Positions 815 through 44,652 of a stretch of 63,362 nt of DNA are shown in pieces; the stretch's first letter is position 1, and the number at the start of each line of letters is the position of its first letter. The notes under the pieces are model-generated. The model ran no database searches. It saw only the letters and a list, made by a program, of their open reading frames with translations, and was not told the DNA's origin. The position numbers were made by a program, and so were the translations under genes. The DNA lies in IMG/VR virus record IMGVR_UViG_3300025030_000103, positions 1 to 63,362 of that record; one strand, given 5' to 3'. This DNA is from a virus (taxonomy: Duplodnaviria; Caudoviricetes).

Positions 815-1663
815 TTGCAAACTCAAGAAAAACCGCGAAGAAGAATCCTCTCTATAGAAGCCCGAGGCTCAACCCTTTTGAAAATCTTCACCGTTTTAGA
901 AGAGAAGGGAGTTGAGGTAAAAAACCTCTCAACCGCCATGCTAAGTTTTATAAACCTCCATCTGGAGCCGTATAATATCTTTGTCCCGCCGGACGAAGCT
1001 AAGTGCGAAGCTTTATTAGCGGAGAAGGTTAAGTTATCTGGCCATATGCGAAATGAGCGGATTAGAGCACAACAGCACTCTGCTCACACAACGGTGTCTA
1101 ACGGACAGAAAGCGACAAGAGAAGCAAAGGAGAATCTTTCAAGAGCCTTAACCGATAGTGACTTTTCGCCGATACATGTAATGGACCCGGCAAAACCTAT
1201 GCCCAGTGAAACAACTTTACAATTCGGCGAAAGATTGCATTCAAATTTCGAAGCGAATCTGGTGGATGTGGATGATCTCTTGAGAAAGGCAAAAGAGATG
1301 CCTATTGAGGACATCTATCCATCGAGCAAACCAGCTATTAATGGCTTCGATGATCTTGAGGAAATTATCAAAGGTGTTTTGGAAGAACAGAAGTTGGAAG
1401 AAGAGATAGATCTTCTTAGCAAGATAACCATCGGAAACATAGAAGACCTCCCGATGGTTGCTATCAAGAAGCAAACACCGAAGGCTCTTGATATCCGCGA
1501 TCCAAGGTTGAAGGATGATAAGCTTTGGAAGACCTTCTCAGGTGAAGCCGATGAAGCTAAGATGTTTGCTCTAAGGATTGTCTATTACAACTTACCCGAA
1601 GAATATTGGTCTTCGAAGAAAGCCGAAGAGATGCTTCTCTATATTCTCAACAACCTACCCTAG
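815..1663 (+). CDS. Hypothetical protein, 282 aa
   Basis: Long ORF; GGAGG upstream of a TTG start. Confidence 0.75.
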   Translation: MQTQEKPRRRILSIEARGSTLLKIFTVLEEKGVEVKNLSTAMLSFINLHLEPYNIFVPPDEAKCEALLAEKVKLSGHMRNERIRAQQHSAHTTVSNGQKATREAKENLSRALTDSDFSPIHVMDPAKPMPSETTLQFGERLHSNFEANLVDVDDLLRKAKEMPIEDIYPSSKPAINGFDDLEEIIKGVLEEQKLEEEIDLLSKITIGNIEDLPMVAIKKQTPKALDIRDPRLKDDKLWKTFSGEADEAKMFALRIVYYNLPEEYWSSKKAEEMLLYILNNLP

Positions 1664-1681
1664 AAAAAGGAGAAACCTGTA

Positions 1682-1873
1682 ATGAAATGCACAGACTTGA
1701 CGCCGGAAAAGGAGATGGCAATTGCTATAGAAGTTTGCAACCTTCACCCTCATAAGGCCTTAATAGCATCATGGCGCCCTCGCTTCTTTGTTATAAGAAA
1801 AGGCTGGGGTTCTCTTCGAAGGAGATTAGAAAAAGCAGATAAGGAGGCATTGAAAGATGGGAATGTATACTGA
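1682..1873 (+). CDS. Hypothetical protein
   Basis: AGGAG RBS; operon position. Confidence 0.6.
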   Translation: MKCTDLTPEKEMAIAIEVCNLHPHKALIASWRPRFFVIRKGWGSLRRRLEKADKEALKDGNVY

Positions 1874-2246
1874 GTTGGTTATAAAGGCAGATGTTCGGGC
1901 GGATATAACTGAGCAAGAGAAGAAAGTTCTAAACTTCCTCTTCAATAGGTCCGAAGAGCCATCTATTGAAGAACTCCCTCTTCATAAGTTTTTCATGGAA
2001 GTTCGTTGGAGATACATAGGTGACAGTTGTAGCTACTACCATATCCCATGGTCTACAAGTCGCTATCATGAAGATTATATCTTCAGCAGGAGTGATCTAA
2101 AGAACTATGGAACAGAGATCGAAAGTTTCTTAGATTGGATAGATCCGTTACTCGATAACGAAGAGGGTTCTTGCATAGGTTATTGGTGGTACGAAGAAGA
2201 TAAGGTACCTAATCTTGTATACAAACAAGGAGGCAAGAAGCAATGA
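1857..2246 (+). CDS. Hypothetical phage protein
   Basis: AAGGAGG RBS; overlaps its neighbours. Confidence 0.75.
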   Translation: MGMYTELVIKADVRADITEQEKKVLNFLFNRSEEPSIEELPLHKFFMEVRWRYIGDSCSYYHIPWSTSRYHEDYIFSRSDLKNYGTEIESFLDWIDPLLDNEEGSCIGYWWYEEDKVPNLVYKQGGKKQ

Positions 2247-2455
2247 GAATTAGGATAACAGACATATGGGAAATGTCATGGCACTATGATAATAAAGAGA
2301 ACCTTATAGGTAAGTGCGCAGATGTGAATCCAAAACTACCACAACGAGAAGACGGATTCTTTTATGGAAATATAAAATTCCTATCTCCCAAACTCAAGAA
2401 CGTAGATCATATACACGGCTTTAAATTCGAGAGAGTCTATAAGGGGAGGTCTTAG
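2243..2455 (+). CDS. Hypothetical protein
   Basis: ATGA coupling to the upstream gene; RBS present. Confidence 0.65.
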   Translation: MRIRITDIWEMSWHYDNKENLIGKCADVNPKLPQREDGFFYGNIKFLSPKLKNVDHIHGFKFERVYKGRS

Positions 2456-2608
2456 TTATGTTAGATAGTCTTATCCTGTTAGGATCTATATTAGTACTTC
2501 TAAGTATTCTAGCCATAATAATATTATGGTGCAGATATCTTTGGGTAGTCTTCACAACTAGCGATTGGTTCCTAGGTCTTAATTCTATCAAAAGAAGGGA
2601 GAGAAAAG

Positions 2609-3550
2609 ATGGCTAATCGTATAACATTAGATAGCCCCTTCCGGCCTATGCGAGCGGTTAAGGTAAGAGACAAAGACTCTCATAAAGTTCGCCTTCCGAG
2701 TTGGGTCGGACCTAAGTTTGATGGCATTCGAGGTGCAATCAAAAACGGAGTGGTTCTCTCAAACACCCTTATACCGATACCCAATAGGTATATACAGAAG
2801 GTCCTAGGTAGACCAGAATACGAGGGCTTTGACTGTGAGCTGATTGTCCGCGATAGCACTTTTAATCAGACAACAAGTGGGATCATGTCTGAAGACGGTA
2901 TCCCCGACTTCGAGGCGCAGGTCTTTGATCTCTGGAACCTCTACGACATGCCGTTTGAAACGCGCTATACAATGCTCCAGATTCTCTGCAAGGAAACAGA
3001 TCATATAAAGCTCATAGAGCAGAGACTCTGCACAACTTGGGAGGAAGTTCTCGAGGCTGAGGTGGAATACCTAGAAGAGGGCTACGAAGGGATTTGCGGG
3101 CGCTACTATAATGCCCCATATAAGTTCGGCCGCGGGACCTTCAATGATGGCTGTCTATGGAAACGAAAACCCTTTGAAGATGGCGAAGCTATGATTATAG
3201 GTTTCGAGGAACAGTTGGAGAATCTGAATGAAGCGATTATCGATGAGAGAGGTTTATCTAAACGATCTAGCCATCAGGCTAATAAAACAGGCAAAGGTAC
3301 GCTCGGAAAACTCATCTGTCATTCAAATGAGTTTGGAGAGATCAAGATCGGGACTGGAACAGGCCTTACACAACAACTCAGACAGTTTATCTGGGACAAC
3401 CAGGGGCTCTTCTTAAACAAGTTTTTCACCTACAAGTTTCAAAGAATCGGAACTCTTAATAAACCGCGCATAGCTGTTTTGGATAAAGACAGCTGTTTTG
3501 AGTTTATGAGGATGAGAGACTTTAGAGATATCCCGAGGGAGGGTCTTTAA
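2609..3550 (+). CDS. lig: ATP-dependent DNA ligase
   Basis: Motif I PKFDGIR, motif III FDCEL, VFDL, motif IV EGYEG, motif V WKRKP, and a C-terminal OB-fold with IGTG. Confidence 0.93.
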   Translation: MANRITLDSPFRPMRAVKVRDKDSHKVRLPSWVGPKFDGIRGAIKNGVVLSNTLIPIPNRYIQKVLGRPEYEGFDCELIVRDSTFNQTTSGIMSEDGIPDFEAQVFDLWNLYDMPFETRYTMLQILCKETDHIKLIEQRLCTTWEEVLEAEVEYLEEGYEGICGRYYNAPYKFGRGTFNDGCLWKRKPFEDGEAMIIGFEEQLENLNEAIIDERGLSKRSSHQANKTGKGTLGKLICHSNEFGEIKIGTGTGLTQQLRQFIWDNQGLFLNKFFTYKFQRIGTLNKPRIAVLDKDSCFEFMRMRDFRDIPREGL

Positions 3551-4039
3551 GATGCGAATGCCAAGATGTCGATACTGTAACAGGGAAATGGAGTGGTCAA
3601 CTCGACTCAAAGAGTACAGATGTAATTGCTCAGAGTTTAAAGAGGCGGATACAGCTGAGTACAACAAGCAAAGACAGGAAGAGGATTAACCTTTCAATTC
3701 AAATTTCAAACAGAAACTAATGGAGGTTTTATAAGATGAGCTTTTTACCTAGAACTGCAAAACCGAAAACAAAGGTATATTTCATATGCACTTTAACCTT
3801 ACCCGAGATAGAAACAGAAAGTGCTGATGATATCGAGACACTTGCGGATATCGCAAGAAAGTTTAATGGCAAATTAACTGTAGAAACCCAAATAGAGGAG
3901 GCAAACTAATAGATATAAATTAAAATCCATAGAAAGAAAAAAAGGATTGTAATCTATGTAACCATATGGTAATGTAATGTTTCGATGATTGACGAAGCCT
4001 TGGCAACAAGGCAAAAACCCAAAAAGGAGATTGTACAAA

Positions 4040-4477
4040 ATGGCAAAAACTAAGTTCGTAACCGCAGAAGGCACGGCTGTAAAGGAAGTACGCAACGAAG
4101 CTGGTGAAGTTGTAACTGCAGGCTATACCCCCCGCACTGTTGAGTGTGAATACAACTTCGGCGAGACCGTCGAAGAGGCAATCGAACTCTTCGGTAAAGA
4201 GGTTGTCTTCTCGGCATTCCTCGCAGCTGCTAAGGTCGATGCTCAGTCGCTGGTTCGTCGCAAACTCAAAACCAACGTACCTGCTGTCGAAGGCGTCTCG
4301 GCGGAGCGCCCCTACACTGATGCCGAAATCCAGGAGGCTCTCAGCCAGTGGAAGCCGGGCGTTAAGGCTGAAAGGGCCGCGGCATCTGTAACCGACAAAG
4401 CAGAGGCTCTTCTCACCAAGATGACCGAGGCACAGAAAGCTGAGTTCCTTGAGAAGCTCATGGCGATGGCTCAGTAG
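4040..4477 (+). CDS. Hypothetical Ala/Glu/Lys-rich protein; probable paralog of 40508..40942
   Basis: AAGGAG RBS before ATG 4040; followed by a hairpin and a terminator. Confidence 0.8.
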   Translation: MAKTKFVTAEGTAVKEVRNEAGEVVTAGYTPRTVECEYNFGETVEEAIELFGKEVVFSAFLAAAKVDAQSLVRRKLKTNVPAVEGVSAERPYTDAEIQEALSQWKPGVKAERAAASVTDKAEALLTKMTEAQKAEFLEKLMAMAQ

Positions 4478-5001: not shown

Positions 5002-5322
5002 ATGCCAACCGTCTTTGTACCCAACCAAGGTGCTCATGATTTCTCAGATGCAGAGAGATACGGAACCTTGAGATATGTAACCAAAGGTATGCTCAGCAAA
5101 CACGCCCTGGGTATAATGACCAGAGCTTGGGAGGATGTTCTTGCTGATAGCAAGGAAGAAGATTTTATTCTCTTAACATCTTTAACAACCCTCTGCAGTG
5201 TAGGCTGTGCCATATTCGCTTTTAAACACGGAAAGCTTAATCTACTCATGTATAGGAACGGCCGCTATATGAGTAGGACAATTCTCTTAGATCGGGAGGT
5301 TTCTCATGAAGGTGCAGTGTAA
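5002..5322 (+). CDS. Hypothetical phage protein (alpha/beta)
   Basis: GGAG RBS; compact ORF. Confidence 0.75.
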   Translation: MPTVFVPNQGAHDFSDAERYGTLRYVTKGMLSKHALGIMTRAWEDVLADSKEEDFILLTSLTTLCSVGCAIFAFKHGKLNLLMYRNGRYMSRTILLDREVSHEGAV

Positions 5323-5509
5323 TAAAGCTGATGTGTGTGTTATAGATATCTGCCCTCATAGAGCTATACATAGCACAGATGGTTTCGAATATGAAGAAGA
5401 GACTGATGAAGGAGATTTTGCACTCACCTGCAGTTGCTTCGACGAAACAACTTGCCCGCAATTCCCAGGTGAAACAGTAACCTGTCTTGAGGTAAAAGAA
5501 AAAGATTAA
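5306..5509 (+). CDS. Small Cys-rich acidic protein
   Basis: GGAGG RBS; several Cys; stop codon lies inside a 29-bp palindrome copy. Confidence 0.6.
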   Translation: MKVQCNKADVCVIDICPHRAIHSTDGFEYEEETDEGDFALTCSCFDETTCPQFPGETVTCLEVKEKD

Positions 5510-5672
5510 ATTCAAATTTCGAATTGAAACTTAGGAGAGCTTATGCCAGTGTATAATACGCACAAGTGCGATACCTGTGACTGGACTACAAATAGCTTCA
5601 TAGAAGATGCAACGATCAAATGTAAGAATCCAAAGTGTTCAGGCACTATGCATCTTAGGAGGTAAATTCAAA

Positions 5673-8063: not shown

Positions 8064-8195
8064 ATGGCTGTTATGAAAAGCTGCGCTAATACCGACTGCA
8101 AGTATCAGGACGAGAACGCAGAAGGTAACTGCACCCTCGAGGAAATCACGCTTGACAACTGCGGAGATTGCGAACAACTGGACGAAGAAGAGTAG
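8064..8195 (+). CDS. Small Cys-rich protein
   Basis: AGGAGGTG RBS; MAVMKSCANTDCKY... Confidence 0.6.
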   Translation: MAVMKSCANTDCKYQDENAEGNCTLEEITLDNCGDCEQLDEEE

Positions 8196-8270
8196 TTTAA
8201 ATTCGAATTTCAAATCGAATCTAAACACAAACGAAACCTCAACCAAACAAAAGAAAAGGGAGAAACACAG

Positions 8271-8657
8271 ATGAGCTTTATCGACATGGAACTGGATGCA
8301 ATCGAAGAAGACAAGCCGGTAGCTGAAGGGGAGTACAGCCTGGTTATCACCGACGTCAAGGAGAAGCAGGATGAAAGTGGCAACAGCAAAGGCCTGCTGG
8401 TGATCCTTGAAGTTGAAGGCGCAACCGGCGCTGCCAACGTCCTCCACAACATCAGCTTCCCTCTCGCTCATGACGACGAGAGCAAGAAGAAAAACAAGCT
8501 CCTCTTCATGAAGCGCTTCCTCGTTCAGTTCGGTATTCCGTTCCAAGGAGGCATCGACCTTACCCGCTTCCCCGGCGCTCGCGCCAAGTGCTTCCTGACT
8601 CAGGATGAGTATCAGGGAGTTGTTTCTAACAAAATCAAGTTGCCGATGATGAAGTAA
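8271..8657 (+). CDS. Single-stranded DNA-binding protein (DUF669-like)
   Basis: PVAEGEYSLVITDV start and YQG..SNKIK end; follows the Sak4-like gene. Confidence 0.75.
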   Translation: MSFIDMELDAIEEDKPVAEGEYSLVITDVKEKQDESGNSKGLLVILEVEGATGAANVLHNISFPLAHDDESKKKNKLLFMKRFLVQFGIPFQGGIDLTRFPGARAKCFLTQDEYQGVVSNKIKLPMMK

Positions 8658-8823: not shown

Positions 8824-9018
8824 ATGAAACTTGGCAGGATTACAACCTGTGACTGTTGTACAAAGCAAATAGTAAGAGGGAGCGGAACACCTGATAAATA
8901 CGTTACATACGGGCCGATTACGTTGTTAGGAATAAACCAACATGCCTGTAGAAGTTGTGCAGAAGATTTAGATGAAAACGGGCTCTTCCCGGAGGAGGCT
9001 GCTCAATGCCTCGTGTAA
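8824..9018 (+). CDS. Small Cys-rich (CxxC...CxxC) protein
   Basis: GGGAGG RBS; CDCC...CRSC. Confidence 0.6.
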   Translation: MKLGRITTCDCCTKQIVRGSGTPDKYVTYGPITLLGINQHACRSCAEDLDENGLFPEEAAQCLV

Positions 9019-9212
9019 GCATCATTATCGAAGACTCACTAGATCAGAGAATGAACAAGTTCCTTCCATGGGGCGTGAAGAACAAAGTAATGGAAGCTCT
9101 TTGTGAAAATCTCTGTGATGCAGTTGAAACTCATGGGAAGGAATTGGTAGGTTTGATTCTCAACAAAGATTGGAATGCCGTAACTAAACATGTTTCTAAG
9201 AAGGAGGTATAA
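9006..9212 (+). CDS. Possible ribbon-helix-helix DNA-binding protein
   Basis: N-terminal alternating strand RVSIII followed by helices; GGAGG RBS. Confidence 0.5.
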   Translation: MPRVSIIIEDSLDQRMNKFLPWGVKNKVMEALCENLCDAVETHGKELVGLILNKDWNAVTKHVSKKEV

Positions 9213-9214
9213 CA

Positions 9215-9433
9215 GTGGCTTTACTAGAAGACATTGTAACTACAATAAGCGAAATGTCTGATGAAGAGCTTTTCGAAGCTTTAAAGGATATCAGACACAA
9301 TCGTACTAAAGAAACAATAATCCTCACTAAAGCAAGAGAAAAGAAGAACAGTGCAGATAAGGTTCTCGCAAATATGACTCCGGAAATGGCTAGAGCTCTA
9401 CTGGCTCAGATGGGAGTTGAACTTCCGAAGTAA
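9215..9433 (+). CDS. Small helical hypothetical protein
   Basis: AAGGAGG RBS; GTG start. Confidence 0.7.
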   Translation: MALLEDIVTTISEMSDEELFEALKDIRHNRTKETIILTKAREKKNSADKVLANMTPEMARALLAQMGVELPK

Positions 9434-9476
9434 CTTTGAATTTAAAATTTGAACATAAACTTAGGAGGATAAAATA

Positions 9477-10922
9477 GTGAGCTTCGGTGATATGCTTACA
9501 GGTGCAGTTGAAGATCAACCATCTAAATACCTTTTTGTAGAAGACATAGTTATCGGAGAAAGATTCAGGAAGGAGTACAACAAGATAGATGAACTCTGCC
9601 AATCTATAGTCGAAAACGGCCTGATGCATTTTCCTGTAGTTGATGAACAGAATAATCTGATTGCCGGCGGCCGAAGAATGACTGCTCTGAAAAAACTGGG
9701 CTGGACCCAAATCCCTGTGAGGGAAATGAAAGATGTCAGTCCTATCAAGCTCAGAGAAATGGAACTGGAAGAAAACCTCCAGAGAGAAAACTTAACCTGG
9801 CAAGAGGAGGTTGCACTTAAAAATGAAATCCTCCGCCTTAAGCAAGAGCTTCACGGCATTAAAGGCACAGGTCGTGCAGCAACTAATTCATCTGGGGTAT
9901 CTCAGAAAGACGTCGCCGAGATGCTTGGTGACTCCCAAGCTAACTTCTCTATGGACGTGGCACTTGCGAAGGCTATGGAGGAAATCCCAGAGCTTGCGGC
10001 CTGTTCAACTAAGGATGAAGCGCGCAAGAAGCTTAAGCAGATGCAAGAGCGTCTTATTGTAGAAGAACTTGGAAGGAGGCACCGTGCTACGAACACAATT
10101 CAAGTTGACAAAGGCGGAGCTACTGTTGTTGAAAACCCAGCTCTTGCAACCCAAAAGCCTAAGTTATCTTTCTACTCACAAGCAGACGCAAGCTTTAGAA
10201 TCGGTGATGCTATCGAAGGCCTTAAGAATCTCGAGCCGAGCACAACCCTGCGATATATCAACGTCGACACTCCGTACGGAATCGACCTTAATGCAATCAA
10301 GCGAGATAACGGTGGAGACGTTAAGATTATCGAATCAGATTACCGAGAAGTGGCTGCAGGAGATTTTCTCTTCCGCGATAAAGAGAGTGGAGAATGGAGA
10401 GGTTTCGCTTATGAAGTCGCATCCGAGTGCTTTAGGCTTTCTGCAGATGACTGCTCCATGACTTGGTGGTTTGCAATCCAGTGGTATCAGCCTCTCCTTG
10501 AAATGCTCCAGCAGGTAGGGTGGAAAGTAGATGCTATCCCTAACATCTGGGATACCGGCGAACAAGGTCAGACAAATCAACCTGAGCTGTATCTTGCAAG
10601 ATGCTATGAACCCTTCTTCTCTTGTAGAAAAGGCACTCCGGTTATCTTCAAGAGGGGAAGAAGTAATATCTTCCGGCATAAAAAACTCAACGGAGATAAG
10701 AAGATTCACCCTACGGAAAAGCCTTTATCCCTTATGAAGGAGGTCTTCGAAACCTATGCTCAGCCGGGCTGTACAATCCTTGTGCCGTTTATCGGAAGTG
10801 GTAATGATCTACTCACTGGCTTTTCTATGGGCCATAGTACATTCGGCTTTGACCTTAATGAGGAGGTTAAGAAGAGATTCCTTATCAGGCTCGTTGAAAT
10901 GGAACAGGCCGGAATTCTATGA
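9477..10922 (+). CDS. ParB-like CTPase + HTH fused to an N4/N6 DNA methyltransferase (beta order)
   Basis: ParB motifs IAGGRRMTAL and ELEENLQRENL; HTH SQKDVAEMLGDSQANFS; MTase motif IV variant VDTPYG, HPTEKP and motif I PFIGSG. Confidence 0.88.
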   Translation: MSFGDMLTGAVEDQPSKYLFVEDIVIGERFRKEYNKIDELCQSIVENGLMHFPVVDEQNNLIAGGRRMTALKKLGWTQIPVREMKDVSPIKLREMELEENLQRENLTWQEEVALKNEILRLKQELHGIKGTGRAATNSSGVSQKDVAEMLGDSQANFSMDVALAKAMEEIPELAACSTKDEARKKLKQMQERLIVEELGRRHRATNTIQVDKGGATVVENPALATQKPKLSFYSQADASFRIGDAIEGLKNLEPSTTLRYINVDTPYGIDLNAIKRDNGGDVKIIESDYREVAAGDFLFRDKESGEWRGFAYEVASECFRLSADDCSMTWWFAIQWYQPLLEMLQQVGWKVDAIPNIWDTGEQGQTNQPELYLARCYEPFFSCRKGTPVIFKRGRSNIFRHKKLNGDKKIHPTEKPLSLMKEVFETYAQPGCTILVPFIGSGNDLLTGFSMGHSTFGFDLNEEVKKRFLIRLVEMEQAGIL

Positions 10923-11128
10923 GTCAGAGTAAGATCGGCTCCTTCATAGAAAGTTGGGCGAATATCTTTATAGGTTGGGCAGTTGCAGTTGCAAGCCAGG
11001 TATTGATCTTTCCTCTTTATGGAATCAACTGCCCTTTGGAAACCAACATAAAGATCAGTCTCTGGTTCACAGCTATTTCTCTTATCCGAAGTTATACAAT
11101 AAGAAGAATCTTTAATCGCTTGCATTAG
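10919..11128 (+). CDS. Small two-TM membrane protein
   Basis: Two hydrophobic helices and an RSY..RR.F tail; ATGA-coupled to the MTase gene. Confidence 0.7.
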   Translation: MSQSKIGSFIESWANIFIGWAVAVASQVLIFPLYGINCPLETNIKISLWFTAISLIRSYTIRRIFNRLH

Positions 11129-11185
11129 ATTGCATTCGAAATTTGAATACAAACTGCATAGACGGTGCAGTTACTTGGAGGTTTT

Positions 11186-11353
11186 ATGGAAAGACGTTGT
11201 GGCAGTTGCCTTTGGAAGAAGGAAAATAGATGTTGCTTTAACCCGCCTGTGTTGGTAATGCAAAAAGATATCACAACATGGCAGCAACCGAAAGTTGAAG
11301 ACTCTGATTCTTGTAGCCAGTATAAACACTACAGGTCGGAGGACTGCGAATGA
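11186..11353 (+). CDS. Small Cys-rich protein
   Basis: CGSC..W, CC..PP, SCSQY; GGAGG RBS. Confidence 0.65.
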   Translation: MERRCGSCLWKKENRCCFNPPVLVMQKDITTWQQPKVEDSDSCSQYKHYRSEDCE

Positions 11354-15964: not shown

Positions 15965-16007
15965 CTATATCACCTCCTTTAGTTTAAATTCGAAATTCGA
16001 ATGGAAA

Positions 16008-16202
16008 CTAATCCGTGCTGATTATCTTAGCCTCTTTCTTATTAGTCGCCCAACCGAGCAGACCGAAAACAACCGCCATAGCAAGTTGCAGCCAATCACC
16101 TTGATGCATGGTGCCAGAGCTTGCAGAAACAACCGGCTCAGCGGCGGTTACAACGGCACCAACCGCACCAAGAATGGTAGTGAGTTTATCTTTATCTTGC
16201 AT
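16008..16202 (-). CDS. Putative holin
   Basis: Two hydrophobic segments and a basic C-terminus; next to the lysin. Confidence 0.6.
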   Translation of the reverse strand: MQDKDKLTTILGAVGAVVTAAEPVVSASSGTMHQGDWLQLAMAVVFGLLGWATNKKEAKIISTD

Positions 16203-29653: not shown

Positions 29654-29688
29654 ACAGCCTCCTGAGTTTATATTCAAATTTCGAATAT

Positions 29689-29730
29689 AAACTGAAGAGG
29701 GTTTGAAGTTATCTCTCCCTCTTCAGTTTT
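29689..29730 (-). terminator. Terminator-like hairpin after the major capsid gene
   Basis: aaactgaagaggg...ccctcttcagtttt; overlaps a palindrome copy. Confidence 0.7.
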
Positions 29731-31088: not shown

Positions 31089-31928
31089 CTAGCGAAGATT
31101 AAGCATATCCGCCACAGCTGGATCAAAAAACTCTTCTTTACCGGCGGGCCTAGATGTTCCAGTTCTCCTACTCCCAGCAAAAGCAGGTTTTTGCTTCTGC
31201 GAAGACTGGCTTCGGTCTGCAACTTGTGCAGCCGGATTCTTCAGTCCAAGTCTTTTTCGACTTTCATCGGCCGTAAGCTGGAAGATTTCGTTAAAAGTTT
31301 TATCTTTATGCTTCGTCTCCATTTCGCTCATCACAAACTTTACAAAGCTACCATACTGCCGAAGGTCCTGATTAGCTTCATAGAACTCACTAACAGCCTG
31401 CTGTACCATCACTTGTTGATTTACGATCTGACTGATAACCTGCGGAAGATTAGCTGCAATCTGTCCGACTACGTCCTGCTGCGCCCTTTGGATGGCCGTC
31501 ACAATTAGTGTGGGATTGTCAATAACTTGATCTAATTCCTCATCTGTGAGATATGCCTGAGTTGCGGTAACTTGCTGCTTTTGCGCAACTTGCTGAGTTT
31601 GTGCCTGCGCCTGCGCTTCAGGTGCTTGCTCACCTTGGGCCACGGGATATATCTGCTGTACCTCCGCACCTCCAAGTCGCTGTGTCAGTTCAAGTATCTG
31701 GGCTCTAAGGGTTTCTTCCACAGTCGGTTCTGTTACCGCAGATTCCTGAACCGCATCAACTACAGGGGCCTGATCAACTGGAGCGCTATCTTCCAGATTC
31801 GATTCAAATTCCGAATTTAAACTATCTTGATTGTCCTCAGCTTTTTCCGCTTCCACAGGAGCTATGCCAAGCAAATCTCCCATCAATACCTGCTGTTCTG
31901 CTTGTGCCGCAAGTTCTTCTTCATCCAT
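31089..31928 (-). CDS. Capsid scaffolding protein
   Basis: Acidic, Q-rich and helical; between portal and MCP. Confidence 0.7.
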   Translation of the reverse strand: MDEEELAAQAEQQVLMGDLLGIAPVEAEKAEDNQDSLNSEFESNLEDSAPVDQAPVVDAVQESAVTEPTVEETLRAQILELTQRLGGAEVQQIYPVAQGEQAPEAQAQAQTQQVAQKQQVTATQAYLTDEELDQVIDNPTLIVTAIQRAQQDVVGQIAANLPQVISQIVNQQVMVQQAVSEFYEANQDLRQYGSFVKFVMSEMETKHKDKTFNEIFQLTADESRKRLGLKNPAAQVADRSQSSQKQKPAFAGSRRTGTSRPAGKEEFFDPAVADMLNLR

Positions 31929-31929
31929 C

Positions 31930-32175
31930 TTAATTCTCCTTATCTCTTATTGTAGAGTTCTCAGCGTTTTGACTAAGCTGCATCTTAATCATCGCCGGTA
32001 TGTTTTCGAAATATTCAAGTTCGTGTATCCTACCCCTGATTTGTTCATCACTCCACTTTGGACTTCCGTTAACAAGAAGCTCTGTTAAAAACCTTCTTCG
32101 ATCATTCACATCGAAGGTGAAAGCTTTCCAAATTAGTGACCGTTCGAAAAGCCTCCACTCTTCTAAGGAGATCAT
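31930..32175 (-). CDS. Small portal-adjacent hypothetical protein
   Basis: MISLEEWR...QIRGRIHEL; start uncertain. Confidence 0.6.
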   Translation of the reverse strand: MISLEEWRLFERSLIWKAFTFDVNDRRRFLTELLVNGSPKWSDEQIRGRIHELEYFENIPAMIKMQLSQNAENSTIRDKEN

Positions 32176-32209
32176 TGCCCCATCAATCTCCTCTGTTGTC
32201 CGCCCTTCC

Positions 32210-34198: not shown

Positions 34199-34312
34199 AT
34201 CTTTATCTCCGTTGAAGATTATATTCAAAATTTGAATTTAAACTGTTCTGATGAAATCTATGCTCTGCGCGTATCTTGCCATGGGGCGGCTCCTATTGCA
34301 GTGATTAGTGGG

Positions 34313-36310: not shown

Positions 36311-36351
36311 AAATCCTCCAGTTTGTGTTCAAAATTCGAATTTAAACTAAG

Positions 36352-36991: not shown

Positions 36992-37036
36992 AAAAATCTC
37001 CAGTGTTTTCGGTAAGTTTCGATTTGAAATTTGAAT

Positions 37037-38632
37037 TTAAACTATTCTGAATTTTACAGTTTTTCTATCTGCTCTATCTTCTATCTTCAATTCCTCATAT
37101 TCATCTTCTATTGTAAAGGGCTTGGCAGTTTTCTCTCTACCAGCACCTTGATATGAGAACGTTCTATTCCCGAGGTCAAACATATCTATGCAGTTCGCAA
37201 GACAGTCCATGACGTCTTTGAACTTTGATCGCGGAAAGCTCAGGAGCTGCGTCTCCAAAGTCCCATGCACATGAACATCTTCATTATGATAAACAGCTCC
37301 CATTCGATAGAATGGACTGAGGGCTGCGATCCTAAGATCCTTATCCTTCGTAGCTTTCAATTCATGTATATCGTAGAACTTCGGCCTAAGTGCTGCGGCC
37401 TGCTGCATCGGATAGGTTATGAAGTTATTTAAGCCAGTCACCTCAATGGCAATGGTATGAGTTCCTAACCGATCAGCCATATTAAAGGCTTCTTCGAAAA
37501 TCATATCAGGTGTGAGACGGGCATTGAGAGCGTCTCGAACCAAGATTCTATTGTTTGCAGAATCGAAGCCGATACCAAGAATAGCCGTAAAAGCACTTGT
37601 TGTATTCGCAGTCTTTGCTGGATCAACTATAACAACATTCTCGATATTCGTGAGCATTATCTTGTCTCTCTGCTCACTGTAATACCGAAACATACTTTTC
37701 TGAAAGGCTGAGGCTCCCTTCGCTATAACTATATTCCGCCACTCCCGGTAGAAGACATCTAAAAGACCTCTCTTCTCATACATAGCGGCTTTGAATTTCA
37801 GCTCATCATCGGTAAGATACTCCGGCCAGACACTCCTAAACTCATCATCACAAGCCTCAAGGCGGAGAGTTTTAAAAGTCTCTCTCTGCTTCATCATCTG
37901 CAGAGTGCCGTTAATCTCGGCTTCCTCTTCATCCTTATCGGACTCGTCAATGAGATTGGCCAGTAAGCTATCTTCGTGGAGAACAGTACCAATTAGAACA
38001 ACTCGCGTCTTCCCTGTCGAAGCTTGATCTCGAGCACCAAGCAAGTCTGCAAAGAACCACTCTTTCAGCTTCGCCCTAGACATTTCATTCATTACATCTT
38101 CTGCATCTTCAAGATCATCTACGAGAAAGATAGAAGGTCTATGCTTCCCCCACTTCAGACCCCTGACCTGGCTTCCAGCACCTTTAGCTTGAATAAAACA
38201 AAAAGCTCCCTTATCATCAGAAAGTTCTATCTCCCCTTTCTCTTCGGCCCATTTAACCCCTTTTAGATCGCCAAAAAGTTCTTTTATGATAGAATTCTCT
38301 TGAAGCTCCTTCGCAAGAGTTTTAACCTTCGCTGCAGCTTCGCTGGCTGTTGAAGATATATAGACTATATAAGGTGCAAGCCGGAACAAAGCTAACCGGC
38401 CGATAAAACCCAGACCAATAGTAGTAGTCTTTCCAAAGCCCCTCGGAGCTGCAATGGCAACCAGCTTAAAAGCATCATCATCTATGATCTCAAAAATCTG
38501 ATTATGCACTGTACAGAATGGTCTTGTAAAATGATCTTCAAAGAGCGTCACAGCTGTAAGGGCCGTTGAATCTAGGCAAGGCAGAATAAGATCATCAATC
38601 TCTTCTTGGCTTAAAAGAAGTGGCATACGCAT
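37037..38632 (-). CDS. terL: Terminase large subunit
   Basis: APRGFGKTT Walker A, LVDDLED Walker B, IGTVLHED, nuclease VDPA and DVMD. Confidence 0.93.
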   Translation of the reverse strand: MRMPLLLSQEEIDDLILPCLDSTALTAVTLFEDHFTRPFCTVHNQIFEIIDDDAFKLVAIAAPRGFGKTTTIGLGFIGRLALFRLAPYIVYISSTASEAAAKVKTLAKELQENSIIKELFGDLKGVKWAEEKGEIELSDDKGAFCFIQAKGAGSQVRGLKWGKHRPSIFLVDDLEDAEDVMNEMSRAKLKEWFFADLLGARDQASTGKTRVVLIGTVLHEDSLLANLIDESDKDEEEAEINGTLQMMKQRETFKTLRLEACDDEFRSVWPEYLTDDELKFKAAMYEKRGLLDVFYREWRNIVIAKGASAFQKSMFRYYSEQRDKIMLTNIENVVIVDPAKTANTTSAFTAILGIGFDSANNRILVRDALNARLTPDMIFEEAFNMADRLGTHTIAIEVTGLNNFITYPMQQAAALRPKFYDIHELKATKDKDLRIAALSPFYRMGAVYHNEDVHVHGTLETQLLSFPRSKFKDVMDCLANCIDMFDLGNRTFSYQGAGREKTAKPFTIEDEYEELKIEDRADRKTVKFRIV

Positions 38633-38770
38633 AGCCCTTGTGTTGGTTGTTTTATCTAAGGCAAAAGCGACCCCTTCGGGATCGCCGATAAGTTTCCATT
38701 CAAATTTTGAATTTAAAGTTATTCAAAGCGCGCCCTTTGAACAACCGCCTGGCCCCTACGGCGCCGGCCT

Positions 38771-39515: not shown

Positions 39516-40134
39516 TGTATTAGTTCCTTTGAAAGAAAAGATCCGCTGCGCTTGCAGTTGTAACTAGAAAGCCAGAGCAGCTCTCTATTTAAGGTCATTG
39601 TATCATATAGGCCTTTCAAAAACAAGGGTTATTTTAGAAGCAATTTTGATCATTTACACCTAGCATATAGAGAAAAATCTTAGCAAAAACTTGGTAAGTT
39701 TCAATTCGAAATTCGAATATAAACTGAGGCCGTCGAGTGATCTACAAAGAGCAAAATTGCGCTTTATACTGAAATTGGTGCGAGTTTTATCGAAGAGGGT
39801 CCCCGCGCGCGTAGGTGGCCAAAAACCCCCGTCTGGCACCCCCCTTTCGAATGTTGGCGCTTTTTGCATCTTGGCACGTGGGCTGCAATGTGTTGGCTGT
39901 CAACAACGGGACGTGTTACCGTCACATGGGACCATGCCATGCCGTTCCGAGCCATCGACCATCGAGACAATCCATGAACGTGGAGAAAGCCGGACCACAT
40001 TGTGCCAAGCGGGGCGATTGTATACGCCGTAACGAGCAAAGCACAGCGAACGGATGGGCACCGAACACACATGGACACATAGCGAATCAGGTGCGTTATG
40101 TTATATCGCCCGGCATATCAAAGGGGGTTATGAC

Positions 40135-40392
40135 ATGGCACAAAGAAAGTTTGACCATTTCACCGTAGATTTGCCGGTATTACAAGGCGATATGGTGCGG
40201 CGCATAGCGCATAAGAATAGAGAAACATTGACAGATGTTATATCGCGATTGATATACAGAGGTATGCAAGAAGAGGGTATGGTTATGTGCCCGAGATGTG
40301 ATACGGTATGCTTTCAGGAAGACTTGCATACAGATGGGAAGGAATGCATCTATTGCAATCCTCGGCCAGAAGCTGTCGGAGTATCAGAATAG
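40135..40392 (+). CDS. Ribbon-helix-helix + C4 zinc-ribbon regulator
   Basis: HFTVDLP strand then two helices (…TLTDVISRLIYRGM); CPRC...CIYC; GGGGG RBS. Confidence 0.65.
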   Translation: MAQRKFDHFTVDLPVLQGDMVRRIAHKNRETLTDVISRLIYRGMQEEGMVMCPRCDTVCFQEDLHTDGKECIYCNPRPEAVGVSE

Positions 40393-41012: not shown

Positions 41013-41285
41013 ATGAGACACGTTATACTAACTTGCAAGAATCACCCTGAGCTTAGGTGGTCAACTAAAGAATGTGCTGTCAACTCAGATGGCACCTACA
41101 ACGGAAGTCGGAATATCTTCTTTGGCGGCGTACCCTCGGGAGAGGGAATGTACAGCGATATGAGTGGCCTTCACTGTACCCAGACTCAGCTAGTTGATGG
41201 CCATCTCCAGATTATTAAAGAATGTGACTGCCCCTCTTCTTGCTTAACTTTCGCGCCGGAAGATGCTTTAGTGAAACGAGACTAA
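41013..41285 (+). CDS. Early Cys/His-containing hypothetical protein
   Basis: AAGGAGG RBS; CKNH...ECDC. Confidence 0.75.
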   Translation: MRHVILTCKNHPELRWSTKECAVNSDGTYNGSRNIFFGGVPSGEGMYSDMSGLHCTQTQLVDGHLQIIKECDCPSSCLTFAPEDALVKRD

Positions 41286-41709
41286 CCTAACAGATATGCC
41301 CTTGGATTCAATAGCATAGCTTTGGAGTTTTAAAGCAGTTTCGATTCGAAAATCGAATTGAATCTATTTTCTCTAAAAGGAGGTGATTGTTATCATGCTT
41401 AGTCCCATTGAACTGCAGGACATTCAAGGCTATCTGGATGGCTACTTGAATGGGCGGCCATTAGTTGGCTTCGACCGAATGAGAGTGTATGAGCTAATTC
41501 AAGCTGTGCTGGACGAACTTGAGATGGAGGAGCGATGCAAGAGCACAGACTAGTATATGTCTACAGTCGCATAAACGGGAGGGTGAAGACAAGAGCTACG
41601 CTTATTGCAACTAATATGGGCCTGGGATCTCTTACGCTGGCCTCTCTAGGTAAAGAGCCTTTGAAAGTTCCAAAAGCCTAAACATCTTTCAATAAATCGA
41701 ACACAAACT

Positions 41710-41761
41710 AGGGACGGGTTTGTTAGTGTTGTATCGCTAACAAACTTGTCCTTTTTTTTTT
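41710..41761 (+). terminator. Rho-independent terminator
   Basis: agggacgggtttgttag...ctaacaaacttgtcc followed by a long T tract. Confidence 0.88.
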
Positions 41762-41856
41762 GTTTTAATCTTCGAAGCACCTATTGCAAGGCAACCAACT
41801 ATCGAAGCACATATCGCAGATCAATGATCAAACACATTAACCGATCCACATATAAC

Positions 41857-42174
41857 ATGTAGCCTGTAGCTTGTAGCTTTTCCTTCATGCCATTTTCTCC
41901 CCAAATTCGAGAAACATAGAAAGTTTAGTGTCATCTCGATACAGATTATCGCTCTTAATCTATCTCTTCGCTATAGATGATTGTCTATATCCATCTATAC
42001 CCCGTTTTCTTATATATATGATTATTTATATATTTTTTTTTTAATATATAAGGCAATATTGATCACTCTAGTTACAGAGCCTCTCAAGATGTTTTTCTCT
42101 AAGATGTGTGTAAAATGTTCTCGAATTTGAAGGGAAATGGTGTTGGATAAAAAGCTACAGGCTACAAGCTACAT
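41857..42174. other. Putative replication origin: ~60-bp inverted arms around an AT-rich core
   Basis: Arms at 41857-41917 and 42115-42174, each with three TGTAGCY heptamers; nearly pure A/T at 42010-42051; non-coding. Confidence 0.6.
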
Positions 42175-42761
42175 TTCTGTTAACGACCATTAATTGATCA
42201 AATACACAGTGCCGGCCTCCCTAAGTTGTTTGGCCTTATCACCTTTATGGGACACACCAAGTAGATATAACAACCCCGGAGACGTCAGTCGACTAAAGTA
42301 GACAAACCCGACTGATGTTTTGCAAAGGCCCGGAGGTGAAGCCGACTAAGGTTAGAGCAACCTCACCAATATCTTGAACACTTTCCACACTGATACGTAA
42401 CACGCCATATAACTACTATAGAAACGCCCGGAGTCCCGCAGGGCGACCAGAGTTGTAAGCCCCTCAACATCTTGTATAATTACAAATAGATTGAATTCAA
42501 ATTTCGAAGAGAAAGATTGTCCGGCGTTCTTATCTTATGCAAAGCAACCAGTGAGCGCCGCAGGCCGAACTGTGCAGGCTCTCCCTTAGTAAGTTAAAGA
42601 AACAGCACGAACATAACGGTACGAAGAAAAGAGTTCCGGCTCTTGTAACTTAACCAATGCACATAAGTTTATATTCGAAATTCAAATTGAAACTGATGGA
42701 TTTGCTATAAGTTAAGCAACATTGCAGATGTAAGAAAAACCAACAAGTTGTGTAAAGAATA

Positions 42762-42790
42762 TTGACAACTAGAGATTATTATGTTATGGT
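42762..42790 (+). promoter_or_regulatory. Sigma70-type promoter
   Basis: TTGACA-17 bp-TATGGT with an extended TG. Confidence 0.7.
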
Positions 42791-42808
42791 ACAGGTTGCT
42801 TTTAGATT

Positions 42809-43036
42809 ATGGGACATAGACCTTCTATGGTGTTGAAATTGCAAGCTGTGATGCAGCAATATGGAGTTCTTATGAAGAGCAAAGAACAGAAGTACGAAGA
42901 AGCTGTTGTTAGAAACCTCAAGACTTTTGGAATAAAATCTAAACACAAGTACATGACCCTGACGCAGATGAAACACTGCGTTGGAATCCGGCAGAGCGAT
43001 ACCCGCTTTGATCATCTTTGGAGTGGCAACATTTAG
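42809..43036 (+). CDS. Small basic hypothetical protein
   Basis: Directly downstream of the promoter; stop codon lies in a palindrome copy. Confidence 0.5.
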   Translation: MGHRPSMVLKLQAVMQQYGVLMKSKEQKYEEAVVRNLKTFGIKSKHKYMTLTQMKHCVGIRQSDTRFDHLWSGNI

Positions 43037-43183
43037 TTTCAATTCAAATTTTGAATAGAATCTCTGCTCACACAACGCACTTTGATAGGAAACAAAACAG
43101 ATAGACTCATCCCGAGTAGGAGATTGAACATCTCCATCTAGTTCAGCTTCTTTTACAATAAAACAAAGGGAGGGTTTAAAAAG

Positions 43184-43510
43184 ATGAAGAATCCACAGAA
43201 TCTTAGAGAGCCGGCAAAGTATATTGAGGCGATGCAAGATACTATAGAAGCCTACAAAAGAGTATTAAAAAGGGGAAGTGGTTTCAAAGGCTCGGACTGT
43301 TCTTTGTGCCATCAAGCTCAGCAGAGACCGCAGAGACCTCCTGAAGATTCCTTTAGAGGACCTTGCCCGACCTGTCCTTGGCTTGTCATAGCTGGAACAT
43401 GTTGCACTGAGGCATCTATTCAGTATTACATGGCAAAAGATCCTGCTATCATCAAAAGAAGAATAAGACAACTCAGGAACTGGATCAAAATCTATCAGAA
43501 GCATCTTTAA
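43184..43510 (+). CDS. Cys-rich hypothetical protein
   Basis: CSLC...CPTCPW...CC; GGGAGG RBS. Confidence 0.7.
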   Translation: MKNPQNLREPAKYIEAMQDTIEAYKRVLKRGSGFKGSDCSLCHQAQQRPQRPPEDSFRGPCPTCPWLVIAGTCCTEASIQYYMAKDPAIIKRRIRQLRNWIKIYQKHL

Positions 43511-43541
43511 TCTATTTTATTATATAAAGGAGGGAATAAAA

Positions 43542-44015
43542 ATGACTCTCGATGAGCAACTCAAGAAGCTTCTCACAGAGCGCCCAGATTTAATGGCAAA
43601 GCTTCTCTCTAAACAACCCGGAGGGGTCTCCCCGACTTCTGTTGGAAATCCTACCAACTTAACAAGCACAAAGAGTAAAGAGCCTAAGAAGTATAAAGCG
43701 CCTTATGCAGATTACCGGCTTTCTATCTTTACGGGTTGCATAACTTGTCTTACAATAACCGAGACGGGTTTCTTCATGTCTTGGGATGCTGAGAAGAACT
43801 GTTTCCGGCCTAGAAATCTTGGAGGCTCTCTCTCAGCGAAAGCCTTTATCGAGACGAAGAAGCAAACATCAGTTTCGATAACCTGCAACTGCTGCATTTC
43901 AACCCTAAGCAAGCAGACACCCGTTGAGCTAACGCAATTGATTTTAAAGTTGCAAAATCCCATCGAGATGGAGAAGAGAGAATCTTTTTTAAAACAACAA
44001 CTAAGGGAGGCTTAG
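43542..44015 (+). CDS. Hypothetical protein with two CxxC motifs
   Basis: AGGAGG RBS; CITC...CNCC. Confidence 0.7.
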   Translation: MTLDEQLKKLLTERPDLMAKLLSKQPGGVSPTSVGNPTNLTSTKSKEPKKYKAPYADYRLSIFTGCITCLTITETGFFMSWDAEKNCFRPRNLGGSLSAKAFIETKKQTSVSITCNCCISTLSKQTPVELTQLILKLQNPIEMEKRESFLKQQLREA

Positions 44016-44225
44016 ATGCAAGTTACAAAAACAAGCATCTTCACAGGCATTACAAGAACTCTAGAGATAGACATAACTGAAGAGCAACTCTCTGAGATTG
44101 AGAGCAAAACCGGAAGGCTTATCCAACACATAGTGCCACATCTGACGCCAGATGAGAGGGAATTCCTCTTGACCGGCTGCGCCGCAGATGAGTGGAATGA
44201 GCTATTTAAAGAAGAGGAGGACTAA
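44016..44225 (+). CDS. Small hypothetical phage protein
   Basis: IQHIVPHLTPDEREFLLTG motif; RBS present. Confidence 0.75.
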   Translation: MQVTKTSIFTGITRTLEIDITEEQLSEIESKTGRLIQHIVPHLTPDEREFLLTGCAADEWNELFKEEED

Positions 44226-44228
44226 AAG

Positions 44229-44507
44229 ATGAACATCATAGATGCCGTGAAAGAACTCATAGAGAATCCTAACGCAGTCGCTATTGTTTTCTCTGGAAGG
44301 GGAAGCACCTATAGAGAAGTTAGATATGTTGATAAAAGATTAGTATATCCGTCCGGCTCTGTTCTGATGGCTGATAGCCCTTCTTTCATTCTCAGACAAG
44401 ATTTTACGATTCGATACAAGTATAAAGAAAGAGAACTCACTACAAAAGAAATCAAAGAGAGAGTCGCTAGCCTCCTTGATGAACTGGAAAGGAGATCATC
44501 TAAATGA
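44229..44507 (+). CDS. Hypothetical protein
   Basis: GGAGG RBS. Confidence 0.7.
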   Translation: MNIIDAVKELIENPNAVAIVFSGRGSTYREVRYVDKRLVYPSGSVLMADSPSFILRQDFTIRYKYKERELTTKEIKERVASLLDELERRSSK

Positions 44508-44652
44508 CCCACAGAAATTATAAACCCACGAAGCAAGATTACATTCTCGCAATTATCTTGAGCCTGCTCTTAACAGCTGGAGTTTCTTTCGTAGATTGGC
44601 TTTGTAAATAACTTTGCATTCAAAATTTGAATATAAACTAATGGAGGCTTAT

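Follow-up and report, generated by a model that had tools for sequence, protein, structure and literature searches.

A 29-bp palindrome dispersed through a phage genome, its variants in related phages, and a ParB-methyltransferase fusion as its candidate reader

The locus

The DNA analysed here, hereafter the window, is the whole of IMG/VR record IMGVR_UViG_3300025030_000103 (63,362 bp), and its subject is a 29-bp palindrome, AGTTT-NN-ATTYRAA-N-TTYRAAT-NN-AAACT, of which it holds exactly 23 copies, all within 1232-44639, together with a gene that encodes a putative reader of these sites. The record is a chimeric contig that combines the complete circular genome of one phage, phage A (45,720 bp), with part of another, phage B. 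An exact 127-bp repeat closes the phage A circle and is at the same time the joint to phage B, the GC content of the window rises from about 45% to about 55% past 46 kb, and a contig of 9,134 nt from a public run crosses position 45847 and rejoins at a stretch identical to 650-686, which makes phage A circular. The repeat, the GC rise and the public contigs bear out the two-phage reading given in a preliminary description of the window made from its letters alone. The phage B part (45848-63362, about 17.5 kb, of higher GC) has a depth in the public runs that differs from that of phage A and is uncovered in places; its early genes are diverged homologues of those of phage A (318-812 against 46124-46609, for example). 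The phage DNA is present in six public runs from two studies (groundwater and sediment), none of which is recorded as RNA. Two features, besides the palindromes, frame the argument:

1-127, + strand: exact copy of 45721-45847; circle closure of phage A and junction with phage B
9477-10922, + strand: candidate reader, 481 aa; ParB N-domain (residues 33-102), ParB/Noc-type helix-turn-helix (HTH) and methyltransferase domain (residues 263-466), from Pfam, PHROGs, phmmer, AF2 and Foldseek

The + strand carries the genes of phage A at 1-15.9 kb and 39.8-45.7 kb, the - strand those that lie between. PHROGs and Pfam identify genes for replication (ligase, exonuclease, Sak4-like ATPase, family A DNA polymerase, primase) and for packaging and the virion (TerL, TerS, portal and major head protein, next to a virion protein of 2,173 aa and a beta-helix tailspike). 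A scan of 40 phage A open reading frames (ORFs) against PHROGs returned no phage RNA polymerase, no integrase was found in phage A, and the phage A gene scans revealed no transposase. ParA (PF13614, E<=0.01) has no match in the record, the control search having matched 14/14 reference genomes, and the tRNA and Rfam scans of the window (Rfam at gathering score) gave no match.

The nearest named relative is Desulfofustis phage LS06-2018-MD01 (hereafter MD01), whose polymerase is 33% identical and whose gene order is the same. It is predicted to be strictly lytic by its describers, and the accessible part of their paper makes no mention of palindromes (PMC10370329). The closest polymerase relatives (76-79% identity) are found on contigs of 38-50 kb, which lie outside the palindrome comparison described below, and a megablast of two 10-kb pieces of the window against 50,697 phage records gave no match.

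Number and form of the sites

The preliminary description had reported at least 23 copies of the palindrome around phage A, with a fixed geometry and none in phage B. A consensus search allowing at most three mismatches returns 18 matches in the window and 0 in each of 100 dinucleotide shuffles, a similar density in shuffled sequence being the outcome that the preliminary description had said would speak against it. A position weight matrix (PWM) built from these 18 matches recovers 23 sites. When a second matrix is made from this full set, the lowest score of any site is 30.5 bits, against 1.5 bits for the best of all remaining positions in the 63,362 bp, 48166 in phage B. The number is thus exactly 23, and the PWM scan of the whole window places no copy in phage B.

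All copies (23/23) align without a gap in the 5-2-7-1-7-2-5 geometry, the core of which consists of two TTYRAA hexamers with 1 bp between them. The outer arm is AGTTT or AGATT and the inner block ATTCGAA, ATTCAAA or ATTTGAA, the variable step being always pyrimidine-purine (CG, CA, TG or TA). The NN positions, described earlier as mostly non-complementary, are indeed so: Watson-Crick pairs are found at columns 6/24 in 6/23 copies and at columns 7/23 in 4/23. A restriction-avoidance reading was considered and dropped, TTCGAA not being avoided outside the sites (18 observed vs 24 expected).

The copies are listed below with no strand assigned; each entry ends with the search that found it (SD, Shine-Dalgarno sequence; the strand of a neighbouring gene is given where it is -).

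Copy 1, 1232-1260: AGATT..AATCT variant within ORF 815-1663, in frame; internal SD and ATG at 1298 (PWM)
Copy 2, 3690-3718: abuts the stop of ORF 3552-3689; SD and ATG 17 nt downstream, at 3736 (PWM)
Copy 3, 5503-5531: overlaps the stop of ORF 5306-5509; SD and ATG 11 nt downstream; exonuclease gene next (consensus)
Copy 4, 8194-8222: 48 nt upstream of a conserved 128-aa gene, 8271-8657 (consensus)
Copy 5, 9433-9461: starts at the last base of the gene for h72, a 72-aa protein; GTG of the ParB-methyltransferase gene 15 nt downstream (PWM)
Copy 6, 11127-11155: overlaps the stop of the DUF7220 gene 10919-11128; upstream of a small ORF that precedes the DNA polymerase gene (consensus)
Copy 7, 15981-16009: junction of the convergent + and - gene arms (consensus)
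Copy 8, 20316-20344: within the gene of the 2173-aa virion protein (16879-23400, -), in frame, ..SIQNSNLNS.. (consensus)
Copy 9, 21282-21310: within the same virion protein gene, frame as copy 8, ..SIQNSNSNL.. (consensus)
Copy 10, 24823-24851: CCTTT outer arm also serves as SD; 9 nt upstream of ATG 24813 (-) (PWM)
Copy 11, 26601-26629: within the 438-aa gene 26176-27492 (-), in frame, ..WIRNSNGNF.. (consensus)
Copy 12, 29665-29693: between the major head protein gene and the next; 11 nt upstream of ATG 29653 (-) (consensus)
Copy 13, 31795-31823: N-terminal part of ORF 31089-31928 (-), in frame (consensus)
Copy 14, 34216-34244: 17 nt upstream of the portal ATG 34198 (-) (consensus)
Copy 15, 36320-36348: 9 nt upstream of ATG 36310 of the beta-helix (tailspike-like) gene (-) (consensus)
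Copy 16, 37015-37043: between TerL and a holin-like gene; 23 nt upstream of ATG 36991 (-) (consensus)
Copy 17, 38691-38719: 58 nt upstream of the TerL ATG 38632 (-) (consensus)
Copy 18, 39697-39725: divergent region between the - arm and the early + arm (consensus)
Copy 19, 41337-41365: 29 nt upstream of ATG 41395 of a 52-aa ORF (consensus)
Copy 20, 42488-42516: 8 nt after the -10 hexamer of the sigma-70-like promoter 42453-42480 (TTGTAA-16-TATAAT) (PWM)
Copy 21, 42666-42694: coding-poor early region (consensus)
Copy 22, 43035-43063: overlaps the last 2 nt of ORF 42809-43036 (consensus)
Copy 23, 44611-44639: 13 nt upstream of ATG 44653 (consensus)

Spacing and placement

On the 45,720-bp circle, the mean gap between copies is 1,988 bp and the largest 4,854 bp, in agreement with the earlier figures of about one copy per 2 kb and a largest gap of about 4.8 kb. 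The gaps have a coefficient of variation (CV) of 0.57, vs 0.94 for random placement (P=0.003; P 0.04 for the largest gap). The evenness persists under an ORF-aware null (P=0.0006), and under a null restricted to gene junctions 0/20,000 draws are as even. The even coverage claimed in the preliminary description therefore survives the comparison of spacing with random placement, with sites even within the 6.5-kb gene.

Five copies lie inside genes by our own gene calls, that 6.5-kb gene included, and the rest are intergenic. The intergenic copies often overlap the upstream stop codon and end 0-30 nt before an SD and start codon on the strand of the arm; an SD and start codon follow within 90 nt of 14/23 sites and within 45 nt of 13/23, against 0.14 for random positions. 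Furthermore, copy 20 sits at the start point of the best sigma-70-like promoter of the early region, 42453-42480. In a genome so tightly packed any intergenic element falls beside a start codon, so that placement alone is no proof of a role in expression; the position upstream of ribosome-binding sites and at one promoter may nevertheless reflect a regulatory role.

The intragenic copies (20316, 21282, 26601, 31795 and 1232) are read in only two of the possible frames, and the resulting peptides are rich in Ser and Asn, three copies giving (S/W)I(Q/R)NSN.N and the other two S.FE.NL. The palindrome appears to be tolerated in coding DNA only in frames free of stops.

The stretch 41600-42800 is coding-poor. 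It contains a strong terminator-like hairpin at 41710-41753 (19 pairs followed by a T-run) and a pair of 57-nt inverted repeats (41857-41913 and 42118-42174), and strong sigma-70-like promoters (42453-42480 and 42762-42790) as well as four palindrome copies are found in or near it. It may be an origin or a small-RNA region. The 12-nt word ACATCTTGTATA occurs at 17226, 35145 and 42458, one of these copies forming the -35/-10 region of promoter 42453-42480.

A double-stranded DNA site

A palindrome can be read by a protein as double-stranded DNA or can fold as a single strand, and the intercistronic location of these copies, directly 5' of ribosome-binding sites, together with the fact that any palindrome can fold, would suit RNA or single-stranded DNA hairpins acting in mRNA processing or stability or in translation control, or as REP-like elements or cruciforms. 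The variation among the copies argues against such hairpins. The half-site variants combine independently, the pairs at columns 12/18 being GC 6, AT 6, AC 7 and GT 4 (n=23), and columns 3/27 show a mismatch in nine copies and a double change in one. When the sense strands are considered, 86.6% of cells are paired vs 87.1% in shuffles, a share equalled or exceeded by 390/500 shuffles; the score for covariation, 0.067, falls below the shuffle mean of 0.075. At columns 11-12 of the sense strand, A.C mismatches (11) outnumber G.U wobbles (5). Some copies, such as that at 37015, have lost the core stem and retain both half-site consensus forms. The compensatory pairing expected of a structured RNA or a REP-like hairpin is not seen among the 23 copies, the window has no Rfam match, and no T-run terminator tail accompanies the sites.

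The apparent stem thus exists because each half matches a consensus, which is the pattern left by a symmetric protein dimer and not by a hairpin. We regard it as very probable that the palindromes are double-stranded DNA protein-binding sites, as the preliminary description had supposed from the NN positions, and the hairpin explanation as extremely improbable.

Related palindromes in other phages

The exact degenerate motif occurs in 0 other IMG/VR contigs, and a search for related loci with a single polymerase sequence led to 16 stretches with the pattern, none of which was confirmed. An alignment of 26 polymerases gave 80 related IMG/VR loci, of which +/-10 kb (20 kb) were taken around each. 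In these, a recurring palindrome emerged from a strict de novo search in 24/80 loci and from a relaxed one in 41/81, against 1/20 shuffled loci; after matrix refinement, a family (>=3 sites, score gap >=8 bits) is present in 44/82 sources. The palindromes of the lineage are dispersed, measure 21-29 bp and differ in sequence in nearly every source. MD01 carries nine copies of a different 29-bp palindrome, in intergenic gaps; the two closest relatives in the comparison (52-53% polymerase identity) share another 29-bp palindrome, with 8 and 11 sites; and ten complete relatives have 5-16 sites each, with clean score gaps.

What is kept across relatives is the length and symmetry, the A/T-richness of the centre and, in many cases, an outer block like CAnAG, the relatives sharing a TGT-N11-ACA-like outline; what changes is the inner half-site. 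In the complete genome G005 (the record of locus L085; consensus of nine sites), the 7-nt half-site is identical to bases 1-7 of the parS consensus of chromosomes, the centre of the palindrome measuring 3 nt vs 2 nt in parS. A sequence that changes between relatives while its form persists points to a co-evolving, phage-encoded reader.

Placement and spacing are shared as well. Among 12 complete genomes, 35/135 sites lie inside any ORF of >=100 aa vs about 0.8 for random positions, and 71/135 are start-associated. The gap CV is below the random mean in 12/12 of these genomes, with P<0.05 in ten (Fisher combined P 8e-10, or 2e-8 without the window, figures that are not fully independent since the genomes are related and partly syntenic). 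Site density is highest in the window phage, with a spacing of about 2 kb, against 3-9 kb in the relatives.

Two observations concern the genomes compared. In the polymerase family used to find them (window 11350-13968), Pfam recognises, joined to the family A DNA polymerase, a domain resembling uracil-DNA glycosylase (PF03167), and the polymerases of several relatives measure 1,165-1,480 aa vs about 870 aa, which suggests inserts or inteins. MD01 (locus L005) contains at 31600-32320 tandem, diverged repeats of 42-132 nt within a large gene annotated 'capsid protein', the gene that its describers reported as CRISPR-targeted and diversifying.

The candidate reader

The protein encoded at 9477-10922 was the first of the candidates named in the preliminary description and has become the best-supported reader, two others (40135-40392 and 4040-4477) having gained no support. 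Pfam recognises ParB_N (PF02195) at residues 33-102 (E 2e-7) and N6_N4_Mtase (PF01555; E 2.3e-10), and phmmer against the PDB aligns residues 33-204 with residues 24-191 of Noc 7NG0 (E 1.5e-10), the DNA-binding domain included. The AF2 model (pLDDT 88.7) places the HTH helices at 143-150 and 154-169. With this model, Foldseek retrieves Noc 7NFU over 206 columns (E 2e-7), as well as ParB-CDP 6SDK and Caulobacter ParB 7BM8, and, for the methyltransferase, CcrM 6PBD (2.3e-11) and M.BceJIV, M.RsrI, M1.HpyAVI and MboIIA (E 1e-11 to 1e-9). Across 62 fusion sequences, the GxRR and ENxxR boxes show no change at G64, R67, E96, E99, N100 or R103 and hardly any at R66, and the DPPY motif shows none at D264 and hardly any at P266 and Y267. 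By sequence and fold the methyltransferase domain is of the beta-class N6-adenine/N4-cytosine type, and it looks active.

The C-terminal dimerisation domain of ParB is not present and the methyltransferase domain stands in its place. A symmetric homodimer is predicted through residues 334-398 of the methyltransferase, with an ipSAE of 0.63 against 0.00 for the best of three controls (a mark reached by 20/30 solved homomers and 1/23 single chains; contact agreement >=83%, pLDDT >=70), a pass that may reflect likeness to the beta-class methyltransferase dimers already solved. The fusion stands out among the core genes conserved across the 12 genomes.

Linking the protein to the sites

The first line of evidence is presence and absence. 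The fusion is present in 78/81 loci and in 41/41 of those with a palindrome family (>=3 copies). A complete relative, G011 (48,878 bp, with terminal repeats), has neither a ParB_N match at E<=0.1 nor a palindrome family; the partial locus L006 is like it, and locus L008 does not include the relevant region.

The second line is co-variation. In a window scan, each of 365 well-occupied seven-residue windows of the fusion was compared with the distance between inner half-sites by partial correlation, the divergence of the whole protein being controlled. The scan covers 37 taxa; the motifs of L036 and G014 were too unclear for inclusion, and L017, L021, L031 and L033 were left out because they are duplicates. 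An occupancy filter is applied, the unfiltered version being distorted by the gap-rich windows 206-217. The five best of the 365 windows are 150-154, that is, the turn of the HTH and the start of the recognition helix (r 0.28). When independent pairs are compared on a tree of 41 fusions built without the recognition-helix columns, a recognition helix starting with V goes with a GAAC core in 4.2 of 5 pairs, and one starting with PM with a TAC core in 4/4.

Several observations weigh against the conclusion that the fusion reads the palindromes. The partial Mantel test on the whole HTH segment is not significant, with r 0.13 and P 0.13 (23 taxa, with the duplicates L017 and L031 out), and the family-wise permutation P of the scan maximum is 0.19 (37 taxa). 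Variable surface segments may score high in such scans for trivial reasons, and of 1,749 control windows from eight other proteins two attain as high an r (0.296 at most), both of them from the DNA polymerase. The V and PM traits were picked after the table had been seen, each sign test giving P 0.125. The N-terminal strand of a small ribbon-helix-helix (RHH)-like protein encoded nearby also tracks the site (r 0.24). As to presence and absence, 37/78 fusion-bearing loci have no family of >=3 copies within +/-10 kb, the complete genome G014 has only four weak sites, and of two distant named phages with a 23%-identical fusion, Microcystis phage Mel-JY34 and MW202489, 0/2 have a family (GC-rich chance families only, 4-bit gap). 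The negative control is one complete genome, G011, which also has no RHH-like gene. Moreover, known ParB-family sites are only about half as long as this one of 29 bp, and the placement upstream of ribosome-binding sites and at a promoter start fits a plain regulator equally well.

The link formed by presence and absence together with co-variation is suggestive but statistically insecure, and we lean slightly towards the ParB-methyltransferase as the reader of the palindromes.

Other proteins near the fusion gene

Two small conserved genes precede that of the fusion:

9006-9212, + strand: RHH-like protein, 68 aa, possible second reader; structural model with pLDDT 87.6; family in 64/82 sources
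9215-9433, + strand: h72, helical protein of 72 aa, possible partner; found by jackhmmer in 77/82 sources, with synteny

The model of the RHH-like protein has an extended N-terminus at residues 1-9 (pLDDT about 92) and helices at 10-19 and 25-43; the protein has no Pfam match at 0.01, no PDB sequence match below E 0.077 and no Foldseek match. Its windows that track the site best are N-terminal, on the strand predicted to read DNA. Its gene is missing in 6/41 palindrome-bearing loci, and in three relatives with palindromes (L053, L064 and L085) the place that it would occupy does not contain it, so that it is not required; the protein is a possible second reader or KorA-like partner.

The gene of h72 lies directly upstream of the fusion gene, often overlapping it, and is retained even in the relative without the fusion; h72 shows no co-variation with the site (max r 0.14). 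Among 30 small phage A proteins, Pfam (E<=0.01) recognises no family of the HTH, zinc-finger or repressor type, the product of 41013-41285 having a sub-threshold MZB match only, and the annotated 'transcriptional regulator' of MD01 has no homologue in the window.

The proposed model

The model we propose takes the palindromes as nucleation or loading points for the dimeric product of 9477-10922, in the role that parS, NBS and OB play for ParB, Noc and KorB. The two HTH domains of the dimer, joined via the methyltransferase domains, would dock on the symmetric site; the ParB N-domains would then engage, and the protein would leave the site along the flanking DNA, as ParB-family clamps do. With a site every 2 kb or so, the whole 45.7-kb genome would be reachable. 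The outcome would be either a rapid or spreading methylation that protects the phage DNA or a KorB-like silencing of adjacent genes, the latter not being exclusive of methylation. We give this loading model, taken as a whole, an even chance. Clamp loading, sliding and the consequence of methylation we infer from the analogy with the ParB family; the even spacing is no more than compatible with nucleotide triphosphate-dependent clamp closure and sliding of that kind. Even spacing and sites inside long genes together argue for coverage of the whole genome. The suggestion of a genome-organising, loading or protective network, made in the preliminary description, agrees in its loading and protective parts with the ParB-HTH-methyltransferase; the 13-14/23 sites directly upstream of a ribosome-binding site and start codon and the one at a promoter may point to a regulatory role as well.

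A more specific and rather doubtful form of the model has a sliding methyltransferase launched from each 29-bp site, a ParB-type clamp closed by the dimer of an active methyltransferase, which would modify a short target motif along the phage DNA. Selection would then have set the spacing such that modification, and with it protection from restriction, extends over the entire genome minutes after entry or replication. HTH and palindrome would co-evolve and serve as a private address by which the enzyme is directed to the DNA of the phage and held away from that of the host.

Alternative explanations

The palindromes could instead be the operator network of another dimeric or tetrameric regulator, be it the RHH-like protein of 9006-9212, a small early protein or a host factor, which would repress transcription or block its passage at early promoters and at the junctions between cistrons, in the manner of stoperators, the ParB-methyltransferase being uninvolved. 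The SD and start codon found within 45 nt of 13/23 sites in the window (0.14 at random), the 71/135 such sites across the 12 genomes, the copy 20 that begins 8 nt after a strong sigma-70-like -10 hexamer and the denser early region (7 sites in 39.7-44.7 kb) are what such a network would produce. The top windows of the RHH-like protein fall on its predicted DNA-reading strand (r 0.24), and the four-block 5-2-7-1-7-2-5 site would suit two RHH dimers. Each possible regulator, however, meets an objection: the RHH-like gene is absent from L053, L064 and L085 and from 6/41 palindrome-bearing loci in all, and its fold has neither a PDB match (best E 0.077) nor a Foldseek match; the 30 small phage A proteins contain no DNA-binding family (Pfam E<=0.01); and a host factor would not account for a different palindrome in nearly every relative. 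Even spacing and sites within long genes are, in addition, unexpected for a promoter regulon. We hold this explanation to be unlikely.

Activator sites or promoter elements for middle or late transcription by the host RNA polymerase, comparable to the dyad elements of the P2 Ogr and Mu C promoters, are improbable. With no phage RNA polymerase among the 40 ORFs scanned against PHROGs, the phage has to redirect that of the host, many of the sites stand ahead of a gene start, on either arm, and the relatives have the TGT-N11-ACA-like outline in common; but a site that often ends 0-30 nt before the start codon, with the SD abutting, leaves no room for a -10 and a leader, a symmetric element would fire in both directions, five copies lie within genes, and no conserved -10-like hexamer is found at a fixed distance.

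Selfish or recombination repeats (mobile miniature palindromes, sequences that shuffle modules at their boundaries, nicking or packaging signals) would explain short, near-identical copies at gene boundaries and a copy number of 5 to 23 among relatives, but with neither transposase nor integrase found in phage A, no target-site duplications, no longer conserved flanks, and a sequence replaced wholesale between relatives while length, symmetry and spacing are kept, which speaks for a co-evolving reader instead, they are highly improbable.

Relation to known systems

The loading model is closest to ParB-parS and Noc-NBS, with which the candidate reader shares an N-terminal ParB fold with GxRR and ENxxR followed by a ParB/Noc-type HTH, and the sites their shortness and symmetry. 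Noc nucleates on dispersed 16-bp sites and then spreads, and the site specificity of ParB and Noc is set by four residues of the HTH region (PMC7383237), the counterpart of the recognition-helix start that tracks the site here. The differences are that a methyltransferase replaces the C-terminal dimerisation domain, that the site measures 29 bp vs 14-16 bp, that there is no ParA, and that the setting is a lytic-type phage without integrase, with 23 evenly spaced sites on 45.7 kb.

KorB of plasmid RK2, a ParB-family clamp, loads at several dispersed palindromic operators, slides and silences distant promoters, and is locked in place by a small DNA-binding partner, KorA (PMC11790492). Here, too, two small conserved genes (RHH-like and h72) stand directly upstream of the fusion gene. 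KorB differs in having its own C-terminal dimerisation domain and no enzyme domain, and in a partner that is an HTH protein with separate operators.

Repressor networks offer a further comparison. In the temperate immunity systems of phiC31 (conserved inverted repeats) and P1 (C1 operators), one repressor serves many operators dispersed through the genome; no ParB fold or methyltransferase is involved, unlike here, and to our knowledge no even spacing of those sites has been reported. In Cluster A mycobacteriophages, stoperators occupy short intergenic gaps of either arm, in an orientation that follows transcription. They are many genome-wide copies of one repressor site that halt transcription elongation, and they are asymmetric and read by a monomeric repressor (PMC9283540). 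Those phages are temperate, whereas the present sites are symmetric, five of them lie inside genes, and neither repressor nor integrase was found in phage A. Dispersed networks such as stoperators (PMC9283540) and KorB operators (PMC11790492) contradict the earlier premise that ordinary repressor operators cluster at a few promoters.

Fusions of a ParB-CTPase with an N6/N4 methyltransferase have been described as phage-enriched, among the commonest ParB-fold architectures in phages, and of unknown role, 'perhaps anti-defense', in a 2025 survey (PMC12704722), and a ParB-like protein without an obvious DNA-binding domain activates phage thymidine dioxygenases (PMC13229309). Neither main text contains the stem 'palindrom', and neither paper, as far as seen, names cognate DNA sites. 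A description of cognate sites for ParB-methyltransferase fusions was not found in the full-text literature, the coverage of which leaves out most subscription journals and supplements. What these phages would add to the known principle of a site-loaded ParB-family protein is its combination with a DNA-modifying enzyme, in a lytic-type lineage and with evenly spaced 29-bp sites.

Significance

In conclusion, the lineage gives a testable pair, made of a defined 29-bp site and a defined 481-aa protein, together with dozens of natural variants that differ in site and recognition helix and one relative that has neither. If the link between the two fails, the sites would still be a clean case of an operator network that spans a whole genome at even spacing, in lytic-type phages whose uncultured bacterial hosts live in groundwater and sediment. 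If it is true, the site-loaded clamp principle of ParB, Noc and KorB would be extended to an enzyme that chemically modifies DNA, the even spacing of the sites would be explained, and the lineage would provide a natural set of orthogonal protein-site pairs.

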